Origin: a virus
Lineage: Duplodnaviria > Caudoviricetes
Virus record (IMG/VR): IMGVR_UViG_3300028832_000004
Location: 32,001-96,000 of that record
Reading direction: 5' to 3' (one strand)
DNA: 64,000 nucleotides
A model generated the notes under the pieces. It saw nothing but the letters and a program-made list of their open reading frames with translations, had not been told where the DNA came from and ran no database searches. The stretch's first letter is position 1; each line of letters opens with the position of its first letter. A program made the translations under genes and the position numbers. Of this stretch, positions 597 to 54,765 are shown piece by piece.

Positions 597-1085
597 TTAT
601 TCGTATTCCGCCGCTTTTTTTCTACACTTCATTTCTGCTATTATTAAAAGGTTTTCCATAATGGATTGGCTCCTTTTTGTCCCTGGCCGGCGCCTGCGGT
701 ATAAATCAATCCTGAAGTTGTGGCAGTAGTTTGCTCTCGCAAGCCACAGGGCATGTTTCGTTTCACGGAGATTTTCCTCATACGTCCACACTGCTAATCC
801 TGCTTGGCCTTCGGTGACTTCGTCAATATAATGCAATTCATTTTTCAGCCTTTCGTTTTCGGCTTTCAGCTTTTCTACATAATTTGCAACATCAATGGTA
901 TTTTTGAATCCCATCTTAGAGAACCCGCAACCGTCCCAAAAGAAGTCTTTCTGTTGTATCCTATCTTTCAGCTCGGCGATGGCGGCGTCTACTTCGCCTT
1001 TTCCATACATTTGCAGCGTTATACTTGTACCCTGAGGTACTACTGTTTCGGCTTTCAGTCCGTCGCACTTCATAGTTTCCTCCAA
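597..1085 (-). CDS. Coiled-coil phage protein, MKCD-type paralog family
   Basis: MKCDGLKAE...YGKGEVDAAIAELK motif shared with 2223..2621. Confidence 0.7.
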   Translation of the reverse strand: MEETMKCDGLKAETVVPQGTSITLQMYGKGEVDAAIAELKDRIQQKDFFWDGCGFSKMGFKNTIDVANYVEKLKAENERLKNELHYIDEVTEGQAGLAVWTYEENLRETKHALWLARANYCHNFRIDLYRRRRPGTKRSQSIMENLLIIAEMKCRKKAAEYE

Positions 1086-3514: not shown

Positions 3515-3916
3515 ATGGCTACGCTTTATGAAAAAGAATTCACGGCACAGGTCGCCCGCTTGATCGCGGCCGGATATACTATCGCGGTCCACCCTATGTG
3601 CGGCCATCAAGGCGAAATCGCCAAGGTCTGTTTCGAAAAGGATGGCAAGTATTACGCACTGTATTTGACCAACGAGTATAACCATGACATACCATCTCCG
3701 GAAAATCCCGGAGATGAAGTCCGCATAATTTTTGGATACGCTCCCGGGGATTACGGGGAGCCGTATTCTACAATGTGGCTGAAAAACGTATCTGAAATTG
3801 AACGCCGCACCTTTTACATCATCGGCGGCTATAACAAAAAGAACGCGTTTATCACGGAAGATAAAGACGCGGCTTGGAAGGCAGCGCAAGAACACGAGGT
3901 AGCGGCATGCCGGTAA
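3515..3916 (+). CDS. Hypothetical early protein
   Basis: AAGGAAAG RBS after the promoter cassette. Confidence 0.7.
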   Translation: MATLYEKEFTAQVARLIAAGYTIAVHPMCGHQGEIAKVCFEKDGKYYALYLTNEYNHDIPSPENPGDEVRIIFGYAPGDYGEPYSTMWLKNVSEIERRTFYIIGGYNKKNAFITEDKDAAWKAAQEHEVAACR

Positions 3917-4437
3917 AAACACTAGCGATGCGTAGGCTCAACGGCCAAAAACGCTCATTCTACTGCGATGATGGGTGCCATCACCGTAACATCGACTTCT
4001 ACCCCGCAGAGCTCGTCGAAAAGATTATTACAGATCTCGCCAACGAAGTGCTGGACGGCCGCAAGGCGTTGAATTCCGCCTTCGATCATTATCGTGCCAA
4101 GCGCAAGGAACTGCGGGACGAGCGCCACGCCGCCATCGCCGAACTCCACGCGCTTCAAAACAAAATGTGCGAGGATGTGTTCGAAGGCGTTTCGCCGCGC
4201 CATATCCAGTGCCCGCCTTTGAGATACGCCGCCTTCATCACCAACAAGACGCGCCGGAACTATTACCTTGCCCTGGCGCGTGCCGCCGAAACCGGTCGCC
4301 TCTTTTGGGCAAAAGAAGGCATCTTTGCTTTGCGCGAAGGACGCAAGAAAGATTCGGAAAAGGCTTACAAGCTGGAACTGCGCCGTAGCCGTCAGGTTCG
4401 CGTATTCACTGCGAAGGCTATGGAGGTTAAAATCTAA
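3874..4437 (+). CDS. Hypothetical protein (true start probably about 3907)
   Basis: Long ORF coupled to its neighbours; GAGG before the ATG at 3907. Confidence 0.6.
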   Translation: MEGSARTRGSGMPVKTLAMRRLNGQKRSFYCDDGCHHRNIDFYPAELVEKIITDLANEVLDGRKALNSAFDHYRAKRKELRDERHAAIAELHALQNKMCEDVFEGVSPRHIQCPPLRYAAFITNKTRRNYYLALARAAETGRLFWAKEGIFALREGRKKDSEKAYKLELRRSRQVRVFTAKAMEVKI

Positions 4438-31821: not shown

Positions 31822-32385
31822 ATGGCTGAAATTACATACGAAAACGTCGAATCTTTCTACGGCACGGCCTTTTACGGCAAATCCTCCGGGGATACCATTA
31901 ATATCATCGGCAAGGCAAAAACATCGAATGGCGAGGAGGTTATCCTGCTTGACAATCGCCGCTTTGTCACGGTCAAGGGCTTCAACATGCAGTATATGCC
32001 CAAATCCGAGAAAGAAACCGGGGTCAACATATACCACGCCGTGAAGGCAAAATATGTGGCCGAAATCAAAAAGATCGGGACGATTCTTGATGGGAAGGAC
32101 CTCTTCTCCGGCATTACATTCAAGGCCGGAAAGAAGTATTTTCGCGTGGATACCTTCGGAGGCGCGGTCGATTTTGAAATTCGCGTTACGCCGCTGACCT
32201 ACACGAAAAACGTGGAATGTGATTATAAAAAAGGCATCGTGCGCCATCTCAAGGCAGAATACGACCAAAGAAAAACAAAAAAGCTCCACCGCAAGAATTT
32301 CGAAAAGACGATCGGCGCCTTCAAAAATGAAAAGGATTTCGCGACCAAGTTCTTTGCCAAGTTTGGCTTCTTGGGCCTCGTTTAG
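31822..32385 (+). CDS. Hypothetical early protein
   Basis: Follows the cassette RBS. Confidence 0.7.
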   Translation: MAEITYENVESFYGTAFYGKSSGDTINIIGKAKTSNGEEVILLDNRRFVTVKGFNMQYMPKSEKETGVNIYHAVKAKYVAEIKKIGTILDGKDLFSGITFKAGKKYFRVDTFGGAVDFEIRVTPLTYTKNVECDYKKGIVRHLKAEYDQRKTKKLHRKNFEKTIGAFKNEKDFATKFFAKFGFLGLV

Positions 32386-33008: not shown

Positions 33009-33773
33009 TTAGAAGGTATCCCAAATGAGCTGGTTGAGCTTGGCGACCGCACAACTAATCATATGCCCGCGGTTGTATCCATAAGCACGGATGAACTCCG
33101 GAACGGATGTAACCGGCTTGATGTAAGTGAAGGAGTCCACCGAATCAAAGTCAATGTAGCGGGCAAGCTTGGAAGTGATCCCGAGGCCGTGAATATGCAC
33201 ATCGCGGGCGCGGGCGTACCAAACGAGCTCGCGCATCAGGCGGGCAACATCATGGCAGTTCGTCAAGCCCGATCCGGCAACGCCACCGATGGCGAAGAAG
33301 CCGCCGGGGCCGACCTGCTGGCAATAATCCGCGAACTTTTGAATCGGGTCAAAGATATGCCAAACGAGGGTAGGTTCCTCTCCGACAAGCTGGATGAGCT
33401 TGTCGCGGAGACGCGCATATTCCTTTTCGCCAACCACGGACTGAATATCCAATTCGAAGAAGTGGGTGAAATACTTGCGATACTTCTTGATGAAAGCCGC
33501 GTAGTCTTCCACATACTTGTCAAGGCTGAATTCGCCCTTGAGCTTCCCCTTCTTGGCTGCCATCATCATAGAGAAGGCGCCGGAGTCAAGCAAGATTTCT
33601 TGTCCCGGTTCGGGACCTGAGTAAAGCTCCAGCGCCTCCTCGACGCGTTCGGGAGATGCCTTGGACAAGTAATAGAACGACACAAGGCAATATTTAAATT
33701 TGTATTTACGGAATGCTTCTTTCGATACGGACGCATGAAGCTTTCCGATGTCAAGACCGGCGTAATACTTCAA
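33009..33773 (-). CDS. dpdA: DpdA-like DNA deazaguanine transglycosylase (TGT fold)
   Basis: LLDSGAFS, ELDI, VWH, AIGG, HIHGLG and DSVDS motifs; folE, queC and queD in the same genome segment. Confidence 0.75.
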   Translation of the reverse strand: MKYYAGLDIGKLHASVSKEAFRKYKFKYCLVSFYYLSKASPERVEEALELYSGPEPGQEILLDSGAFSMMMAAKKGKLKGEFSLDKYVEDYAAFIKKYRKYFTHFFELDIQSVVGEKEYARLRDKLIQLVGEEPTLVWHIFDPIQKFADYCQQVGPGGFFAIGGVAGSGLTNCHDVARLMRELVWYARARDVHIHGLGITSKLARYIDFDSVDSFTYIKPVTSVPEFIRAYGYNRGHMISCAVAKLNQLIWDTF

Positions 33774-33784
33774 AGCGGACCTCC

Positions 33785-34399
33785 TTACACCTTGTCCCAG
33801 CCGATAATATCAAAGTTTCCTTCGTCTTCGGAATTATCGTTAACCGGACCTTCGGATCCATCAACATCCACCGGACATTCCGGTTCGGCGACTGCATTGG
33901 ATTCGCCAACGATTTCGGAAGCGATACCTGCTTCTTGCGGGAGCATGTTACGCTTCTTGAGAATCTTAGGATCGAGCGGGCGGATGTTCTTGATGTCCGT
34001 AATGATGTTCTTCATTTCGGTGAGATACTTGGAGTGAACGCGGCCGCCCATAATTTCCTTCGCAACGGAAGCAAAGTCCAGCTTGCCGAGGGACTGCGTC
34101 ACGTTGTCGATGATGCGGAGTTCGTCTTCAGCCTCCTTGTCAAGGTCGGAAATGATGCACGGAATTTCGGACAAGCCTAGTTTCTGTGCAGCCATGAGGC
34201 GGCCGTGACCGGTAATGACAACATGTTCGGCGTTCACCACAATCGGAATTTGGAAGCCGAAGCATTCAATGGAGTTCGCGATGGAATCCACGTTATCGGC
34301 GTGGGTCTTGTTGTTGTTCTTGTAGGGGTAAATGCACTTTACCGGGAGGTATACGATTTCGAGTTTGTGTTCCATTGTATTCCTTTTGAAAAGATACAT
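33785..34399 (-). CDS. ParB N-terminal-domain protein
   Basis: PYKNN, SIECFGFQIPIVV, ITGHGRLMAAQKLG and RIIDN motifs. Confidence 0.88.
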   Translation of the reverse strand: MYLFKRNTMEHKLEIVYLPVKCIYPYKNNNKTHADNVDSIANSIECFGFQIPIVVNAEHVVITGHGRLMAAQKLGLSEIPCIISDLDKEAEDELRIIDNVTQSLGKLDFASVAKEIMGGRVHSKYLTEMKNIITDIKNIRPLDPKILKKRNMLPQEAGIASEIVGESNAVAEPECPVDVDGSEGPVNDNSEDEGNFDIIGWDKV

Positions 34400-35627: not shown

Positions 35628-35742
35628 AGGGGTTTCGACAGCATTTCAAACTTGCGGTGCGCTCTAGCCCGGTGGAGCGATGCGTTCCTCGTAAGGACTG
35701 AGCATCCGGGCGTCACCAAACATAATATACGCCGCAATAAAC

Positions 35743-35967
35743 CTAATGATTCGGATCTACAAGGCGGACAAGATCGCCCACGGTCTTTATACGATCCAGT
35801 TCTGAATCGGAAATGTTGGCGCCGAACTCATCTTCCAAATCTAGTGAAATCATAAGACGCTCATAGTCATCCTCCGAAAAGACAGTTTCAAGATTGGTAT
35901 CCTCGGTGATGTCCGAAATGGCGAGGCGGTCTTCGAGAATGGTCTTAACACGATCAAATGCGGTCAT
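35743..35967 (-). CDS. Acyl-carrier-protein homologue lacking the phosphopantetheine Ser
   Basis: DRVKTIL, LEDEFG.NISD and IKTVGD fit ACP; DSLD is replaced by DDYE. Confidence 0.8.
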   Translation of the reverse strand: MTAFDRVKTILEDRLAISDITEDTNLETVFSEDDYERLMISLDLEDEFGANISDSELDRIKTVGDLVRLVDPNH

Positions 35968-36043
35968 ATACTATTCCTTAAAATAAATCGTTTGCGCGTG
36001 ATGCCCAAGCCTAAGATGAGGCATCACGCCTTCTTTTATGTAG

Positions 36044-36119: not shown

Positions 36120-36428
36120 GTCCTTGTGGTTGATAGTCACTTTTCGTTCGGGAGTAGCCGAACGAGCCCTGAAGGATGCCGGGCGCTCCGTCTTCCCACC
36201 CTATTGACGGAACAGAGGGAAACTACTCCACACGGGTAATCAGCCCGTACTACGTAGCCGGTCCTGATGCAGTTTGGCCCTCCACCGAGCACTGCTTAGT
36301 CGGTAGCCGTAGCATCCGACCTACATCAGTCAGTTTTCCGATTTCCTTCAGCCTAATGCGGTCTCCAGCGCTTTGCCTCGGTCCGCTTCGCTTATCACGG
36401 TCACCTTGGCAAAACCTCATCGGGAGGT
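36120..36428 (-). ncRNA. Unassigned ~310-nt structured RNA
   Basis: Nested helices CTGAAGGA/TCCTTCAG, CTGATGTAG/CTGCATCAG, TCCGTC/GACGGA, CGTTCGG/CCGAACG; TATATT box just upstream. Confidence 0.55.
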
Positions 36429-36538
36429 GATTAAATATACATACCAAATGCTCTACACGTTGGCAGGTGCTTCGCCCCGTCTGTGACCTCGGCGTGCAAC
36501 TTGCGTATCGGTATCCCTGTCGAAACCAAGGCACCCCC
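36422..36538 (-). ncRNA. tmRNA-derived fragment without tag ORF or T-arm
   Basis: GGGGGTGCCTTGGTTTCGACAGGG...TGCACGCCGAGG 5' signature; P2 partners CGTGTAG and TTGGTAT. Confidence 0.65.
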
Positions 36539-54665: not shown

Positions 54666-54688
54666 GTATTTAATGCACAAGTGCATAG

Positions 54689-54765
54689 TGGCAGTTTTGG
54701 GAATCGAACCCATCATCGTACTAGCTTTCGAAAGCTAGGTGCTCTCCCGACTGAGCTATACTGCC
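54689..54765 (-). ncRNA. Aberrant tRNA (Arg-UCG-like) with palindromic anticodon arm
   Basis: D-arm GCTC-AGTCGGGA-GAGC; CTAGC-TTTCGAAA-GCTAG; GGGTTCGATTCCC. Confidence 0.7.

Follow-up and report, generated by a model that had tools for sequence, protein, structure and literature searches.

Introduction

Phosphopantetheinyl transferases (PPTases) modify acyl carrier proteins (ACPs) at a serine which is located at the N-terminus of helix II, inside a D-S-L motif. In phages, ACP genes also occur as stand-alone genes without a pathway, and these have been described as auxiliary genes whose function was stated to be unclear (PMC5463345). Such orphan phage ACPs (PHROG 5934; e.g., ORF32 of Erythrobacter phage vB_EliS-R6L, the ACP of Brevundimonas phage Bajun and gp163 of Pectobacterium phage CBB) resemble the protein described here, P0001, in being stand-alone. 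Unlike P0001, the ACPs of Bajun and CBB keep the D-S-L motif.

A second group of phage proteins is closer to P0001 with regard to the cofactor site. The "acyl carrier protein" family of the Ackermannviridae comprises 271 phage records and has been listed only (PMC10892097). The member of phage Vi01 (FQ312032, 80643-81050, minus strand) reads "GGDDLD" at this site, and among the four further members, from phage 38, UPM 2146, PP35 and CRW-SP2, the readings are "GGDDLD", "GGDELD" (twice) and "QCDDLD". Asp or Glu is therefore present in 5/5 members read, which stem from different genera and share 43-65% identity. P0001 has in common with this family that a phage-encoded PP-binding domain features an acidic residue at the serine position. 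Nevertheless, the Vi01 family carries an N-terminal extension of roughly 45 aa, whereas P0001 is a bare domain of 74 aa, and the Vi01 family, which is conserved across genera, adjoins a vWA-domain or "magnesium chelatase" gene, a neighbour which the P0001 gene does not share. With only 24-25% identity to the Vi01-family ACPs, P0001 groups with its Ser-bearing relatives P0002 and P0003 on the tree; furthermore, in contrast to the Ackermannviridae, members of its own family do not share the acidic residue, and the gene is specific to the strain.

Outside of phages, the mitochondrial ACP of Plasmodium falciparum, in which the serine is replaced by Phe, acts as an essential binding subunit (PMC8547962). 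Thus, ACPs lacking the serine can be functional. Like P0001, this protein combines the ACP fold with the loss of the serine, but it is eukaryotic, its replacement is hydrophobic and its partner is Isd11-Nfs1 (an LYR protein). In the literature searched, no paper was found which recognizes a class of phage ACPs with Ser exchanged for Asp or Glu.

The locus was studied in a window of 64,000 nucleotides, which comprises positions 32,001 to 96,000 of the IMG/VR record IMGVR_UViG_3300028832_000004 and belongs to a complete phage genome of 127,987 bp with direct terminal repeats, the standard code and 50% G+C. The phage is one of the cattle gut. An initial annotation of the window had pointed to the P0001 gene as encoding an ACP mimic; the features of the locus are compiled in Table 1.

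Table 1. Features at and around the P0001 gene; positions refer to the 64,000-nt window.
Feature	Position	Strand	Evidence or remark
tRNA-like gene with irregular, 8-nt anticodon loop, downstream neighbour of the P0001 gene	35554..35627	-	ARAGORN/Rfam
255-bp presence/absence cassette (gene, ribosome-binding site, 12-nt tail)	35731..35985	-	sister phage L083, runs X10/X11
P0001, 74-aa ORF with ACP fold	35743..35967	-	profile, structure and composition evidence
GAC codon of Asp34 at the phosphopantetheine Ser position (E. coli Ser36), first residue of predicted helix II	35866..35868	-	alignment and model
Short 5' leader of the P0001 gene with AAGGA, within the cassette	35968..35985	-	sequence
G+C-rich hairpin separating the cassette from the upstream tRNA-like gene, conserved in L083	35990..36035	-	sequence comparison
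tRNA-like gene with 8-nt anticodon loop UAUACUAA, upstream neighbour of the P0001 gene	36044..36116	-	ARAGORN/Rfam
tmRNA-like piece, 117 nt	36422..36538	-	two ends of the tmRNA model only, 30.8 bits, gathering score 47

Fold and Composition of P0001

That P0001 is a true ACP homologue by fold and sequence was borne out by profile searches as well as by structure prediction. The Pfam PP-binding model matches over the whole domain with 23.7 bits (cut-off 20.8), PHROG 5934 "acyl carrier protein" matches with an E-value of 1.4e-6, and the best solved structure in HMMER searches is the S. aureus ACP 4dxe_H (E 7.6e-10). Eleven NCBIfam ACP models match at about 14-38 bits, with cut-offs of 65-146. 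The AlphaFold2 model, calculated with 70 homologues (mean pLDDT 86.2, pTM 0.71), predicts a four-helix bundle with helices at residues 3-15, 34-48, 54-59 and 63-70. All top Foldseek matches of this model are ACPs (TM 0.77-0.87), and the ESM Atlas returned ACP clusters only.

In comparison to AcpP (PF00550; 4dxe, E. coli 1acp), P0001 shares the four-helix fold (TM 0.8-0.87), 25-38% identity, the size and the acidity, and it retains the Asp preceding the attachment site, the TVGD motif and, at the end of helix II, E-[DE]-E-F. The acids of the docking helix are largely kept as well, with D33, E36 and E45-D46-E47 corresponding to D35, D38 and E47-E49 of E. coli. P0001 differs from AcpP in having Asp instead of Ser and, in the docking helix, Met at the equivalent of E. 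coli E41, in being phage-borne and stand-alone, and in scoring below every NCBIfam ACP cut-off.

With a pI of 4.05 and 20 acidic versus 7 basic residues among its 74 amino acids, the product of this small accessory phage gene could also be imagined as a generic acidic mimic, for instance an Ocr-like anti-restriction protein or a DNA mimic, or as having another role unrelated to ACP partners. Still, all ACPs are equally acidic, the fold and the helix II pattern of P0001 are specifically ACP-like, and no similarity to known DNA mimics was found in Pfam, PHROGs or PDB, which renders such a role improbable.

Asp34 at the Cofactor Site

The position of Asp34 was confirmed: in every HMMER alignment, "seDDy" of P0001 is placed on "gaDSL", the residue falls into the serine column of the MAFFT alignment, and it marks the start of predicted helix II. 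In this column, Ser is present in 111/129 short homologues and Asp in 12/129, with the latter tally being a biased and overstated rate, as the Asp of the query itself contributes about 3 bits to such matches and thereby favours Asp-bearing sequences. The preceding Asp (D33, corresponding to D35 of E. coli) occurs in 126/129 homologues. A sequencing or assembly artefact was considered and ruled out. The stretch was found exactly in runs from three bovine-gut samples, between 97 and 100% of the 31-mers sampled from it are present in six runs, and 6 contigs from three sources (JGI, ENA, Logan) encode the identical protein; accordingly, Asp34 is not a read error. The small 31-mer shares in the runs X7-X23 are no evidence of habitat.

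According to the genetic code, the conversion of any Ser codon to an Asp or Glu codon requires at least two nucleotide changes. Asp, like Ser, is a preferred helix N-cap, so that the ACP fold is likely kept with Asp34, and the exchange of Ser for Asp is at the same time the classical phosphomimic. As Asp34 replaces the phosphopantetheine serine, the earlier statement that the protein cannot carry the cofactor at the canonical site stands. It is conceivable that P0001 remains a carrier by being modified on Ser31, which is located three residues upstream in the loop before helix II, or on Ser41, or by a load on Asp itself. However, Ser31 is also present in a Ser34-bearing relative and is therefore not a compensating change. 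Moreover, PPTases act on the N-terminal serine of helix II in D-S-L and the phage encodes no such enzyme, which leaves a carrier function of this kind highly improbable.

Searches of the complete 128-kb genome gave no match for phosphopantetheinyl transferases (PF01648), adenylating enzymes (PF00501), ketosynthases (PF00109) or acyltransferases (PF01553), while control genomes were positive for each of these models. The genome contains one PP-binding gene only, and the ten ORFs nearest to it have no Pfam match apart from a ParB_N protein. Since the phage features neither a PPTase nor an ACP-using enzyme, P0001 could act only through host proteins.

Genomic Setting of the P0001 Gene

The cassette which contains the P0001 gene differs between closely related phages. 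In contigs of the bovine-gut runs X10 and X11, the flanks are 90-95% identical to those of the window and positions 35731-35985 are replaced by 73-74 unrelated nt. The same junctions, with about 74 unrelated nt in place of the cassette, occur in the IMG/VR sister phage L083 (131.7 kb, 100% complete), whose neighbour gene is 98% identical in protein to that of the window and whose flanking RNA genes are 85-89% identical. No PP-binding match was obtained in the complete L083 genome. As the P0001 gene is absent from this genome and from the two other bovine-gut contigs, it is dispensable and represents strain-specific accessory cargo between two tRNA-like genes, not a core function. A third relative, L084, is devoid of most of the RNA island. 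The third-position G+C content (GC3) of the P0001 gene is 0.49, about 1.5 SD below that of the long ORFs of the genome (0.57 +/- 0.05).

Regarding its expression, the gene is preceded by a ribosome-binding site of the sequence AAGGA, with 7 nt between it and the ATG. The G+C-rich hairpin between the cassette and the upstream tRNA-like gene is not followed by a T-run on the minus strand, and the ACP mRNA may thus arise by read-through of an island transcript. The RNA run X24 covers positions 36122-36300 only and originates from a 90-95% identical relative; it is therefore silent on the P0001 gene. Both versions of the variable segment, the cassette as well as its counterpart in L083, finish in GTATATT, a -10-like element before the next RNA gene. 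The 74-nt replacement in L083 (6045-6118), perhaps a terminator or a small structured RNA, contains a hairpin which is rich in G+C and has a GAAA loop (GGCGGCCGAAAGGGCTGG), and ends in GTATATT.

The RNA genes of the window show peculiarities of their own. A third tRNA-like gene with an irregular anticodon loop was found at positions 54688-54765 (minus strand), and for all three such genes ARAGORN assigned "anticodons" of four or two bases, with Rfam tRNA scores of 37-54 bits. At the place matching the tmRNA-like piece of the window, L083 features a 354-nt tmRNA (3677-4030, ARAGORN) with the tag AAPVAQAA*. Just beyond the RNA island, the window encodes a protein of 204 aa whose N-terminal domain is of the ParB type (35.6 bits; 33785-34399, minus strand), and the adjacent gene for a 254-aa protein (33009-33773), which has no Pfam match, shows 94-98% conservation in two sister phages.

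The initial annotation described the P0001 gene as embedded among tRNA and tmRNA mimics, which is true for its location; nevertheless, L083 and the contigs of X10 and X11 demonstrate that the gene is not a conserved part of the island. P0001 might be a functional component of this island, e.g., a binder of island RNAs or of translation factors, as its gene is flanked on both sides by tRNA-like genes of the same strand, probably within one transcript, and as another ACP-like gene of the Asp-Asp type (in L178, see below) also adjoins a tRNA gene. However, L083 keeps the flanking RNA genes without an ACP gene in 131.7 kb, the X10 and X11 contigs show the same gap, and the strongly acidic P0001 revealed no RNA-binding feature. 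A role within the island is hence hardly to be expected, and since L083 retains the island without the ACP gene, the tie between both is probably incidental. In phages, cargo genes are commonly accommodated in tRNA regions. Even if added up, the island role, the modification of another serine and the generic acidic mimicry have a low probability.

Near Relatives and Age of the Exchange

When all 1.84 billion representatives were scanned with HMMER, only two near relatives of P0001 were recovered, P0002 and P0003, and the family is accordingly tiny with three sequences below E 1e-10. P0002 is 84% identical, is encoded on an ENA contig of 1383 bp and reads "SNDSY", and P0003 is 53% identical, is encoded on a contig of 962 bp and reads "VDSL"; both keep the serine. 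In a tree calculated with the serine site masked, P0001 and P0002 are paired with a support of 0.999, P0003 joins them at 0.84, and the next neighbours of these three proteins are also Ser-bearing. Searches of viral contigs with P0001 or with the three-member alignment detected no close relative, and those of metagenome contigs yielded ACPs of 30-38% identity only, which are mostly cellular. A megablast comparison of the 6-kb neighbourhood of P0001 to GenBank phages gave no match.

P0001 and P0002 differ at 12 positions, of which two are found in the attachment loop, namely N32 in P0002 versus E32 in P0001, and S34 versus D34. Both of these differences run toward acid, and the exchange between Asn and Glu at residue 32 also needs two nucleotide changes. 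As the nearest relatives and the tree neighbours bear Ser, the serine is ancestral and the Asp recent in this phage lineage. On the basis of these alignments and the masked tree, Asp34 is young in the P0001 lineage and has no conservation record. The initial annotation had proposed to check whether Asp is conserved in phage homologues; in the immediate family this is not the case, as both P0002 (84%) and P0003 (53%) retain Ser.

These findings keep alive the main rival explanation that P0001 is an orphan, host-activated phage ACP which has just lost its serine by neutral drift in dispensable cargo and which is itself drifting toward loss. Besides the ancestral serine retained in the 84% and 53% identical relatives, the absence of the cassette from sister phages and the tiny size of the family fit this explanation, and a codon change in two steps is probably not improbable by chance at roughly 16% protein divergence. 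On the other hand, the ORF is intact, has a good ribosome-binding site and encodes a confidently predicted fold, Asp belongs to the acidic type which is conserved in other phage families and requires two nucleotide changes, and the change of N32 to E32, two residues away, likewise leads to an acid in two steps. Inactivation by drift is thus possible, with the odds being against it.

Recurrence of Serine-Less Phage ACP-Like Proteins

The frequency of serine loss was determined with a search of IMG/VR for the back-translated C-terminal motif E-x-I-x-T-V-G-D-x-V, which is blind to the serine site. Among the 13 true viral ACP-like proteins found in this way, nine have Ser, two Asp (L178, L118), one Glu (L095) and one Thr (L134). 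In ACPs of metagenome contigs recovered with equally site-blind motifs, the position is occupied by Ser in 80/80 cases; three apparent Asp residues among them turned out to be gap artefacts, as the sequences read DSL. The difference between 4/13 serine-less viral and 0/80 serine-less metagenome proteins is significant (Fisher p = 2.4e-4), with small numbers and non-independent rows. The pattern IKTVGD comprised only 4 true ACPs among 63 matches. On a tree with the site masked, about 22 changes are required to account for 26 serine-less tips, so that serine loss is recurrent, with the tree being weak for sequences of such length.

Further families support a repeated occurrence of the acidic exchange. 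L002, a viral contig of 48 kb, encodes a PP-binding protein of 84 aa. The eight sequences of its family, some of them Caulobacter-named, share 61-99% identity and keep "GVCDL", whose Asp falls on the Ser position when helix II is aligned without gaps; one member reads "GASDV". The protein of the 250-kb viral contig L178 is 39% identical to P0001 (E 5e-13) and shares "FS.DD" with it; the search for its family recovered L178 alone. If Ser codons decayed at random, most of the resulting residues would be those accessible by one step (N, T, G, R, A, P or L, among others). As the change from Ser to Asp or Glu needs two nucleotide changes, the dominance of these two residues argues for selection and not for random decay. 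The serine-less phage forms, with Asp or Glu conserved throughout entire families, hence point to selection for an acidic residue which is not modifiable.

Several of the contigs involved feature additional genes of interest. In L178 (4035-6804), the ACP-like gene of the Asp-Asp type, whose product has a C-terminal tail of roughly 55 aa, is followed by genes for tRNA-Val, a PnuC-type transporter of nicotinamide mononucleotide and a NadR-like protein (cytidylyltransferase plus AAA_28), with the latter two forming a NAD salvage pair. The 199-kb viral contig L095 encodes a tRNA with the anticodon CTA (836-909, minus strand; amber-reading, tRNA-Pyl according to ARAGORN) 4 kb from the ACP-like gene of the Glu type. 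In IMGVR_UViG_3300029305_003320 (84 kb; L256, L258), two ACP-like genes with D-S-L and D-T-L, respectively, are located about 20 kb apart.

Putative Function and Host Targets

Considering all lines of evidence, P0001 is best read as a non-carrier ACP look-alike which acts by binding host ACP partners and is carried as dispensable cargo, an interpretation to which we assign a probability of about 0.5. According to it, Asp34 would block the cofactor site, and P0001 would carry no acyl groups and work by protein binding instead. The protein would have to be made, bind ACP partners of the host and thereby help the phage. Most likely, it would mimic the apo- or the phospho-form of the host ACP, with the carboxylate of Asp34 plausibly imitating the phosphate of the phosphopantetheine arm. 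In this manner, P0001 may occupy the docking sites of AcpS, of PlsB/PlsX-type acyltransferases or of enzymes of fatty acid synthesis; alternatively, it might bridge host ACP partners as an adaptor.

A titration of ACP-binding host proteins by P0001, as put forward in the initial annotation, is plausible by analogy, and a decoy or adaptor role is favoured by acidic exchanges which recur and are conserved in other phage families. [quoted passage not shown] In the same review, SpoT is reported not to bind apo-ACP (PMC3896788). This weakens the earlier suggestion of SpoT as a target of the decoy, and SpoT is therefore an unlikely target unless the Asp mimics the phosphate.

Implications

Beyond the single locus, it may tentatively be proposed that phages have repeatedly and independently made ACPs into non-carrier look-alikes by using Asp or Glu as a phosphate mimic in order to jam or redirect the ACP-dependent machinery of the host, although this is doubtful at present. 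If true, the machinery concerned would include, e.g., lipid synthesis, AcpS, or stress or defence factors which bind ACP, and the P0001 locus would represent such a conversion caught in the act, with the Ser-bearing sister at 16% divergence providing a natural matched pair. Few bacterial proteins are as highly connected as ACP, and a copy of its docking surface which cannot be loaded would be a simple means of interfering with lipid synthesis or other ACP-dependent steps. Taken alone, the P0001 locus is a dispensable, strain-specific gene whose Asp is without a conservation record. The class with Ser exchanged for Asp or Glu is, nevertheless, present in hundreds of cultured Ackermannviridae genomes. 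All such genes of phages appear in databases under the name "acyl carrier protein", which is wrong for the serine-less ones, and are listed in papers as auxiliary metabolic genes. To this class P0001 adds a convergent case, and its 84% identical, Ser-bearing sister makes a clean swap experiment possible.
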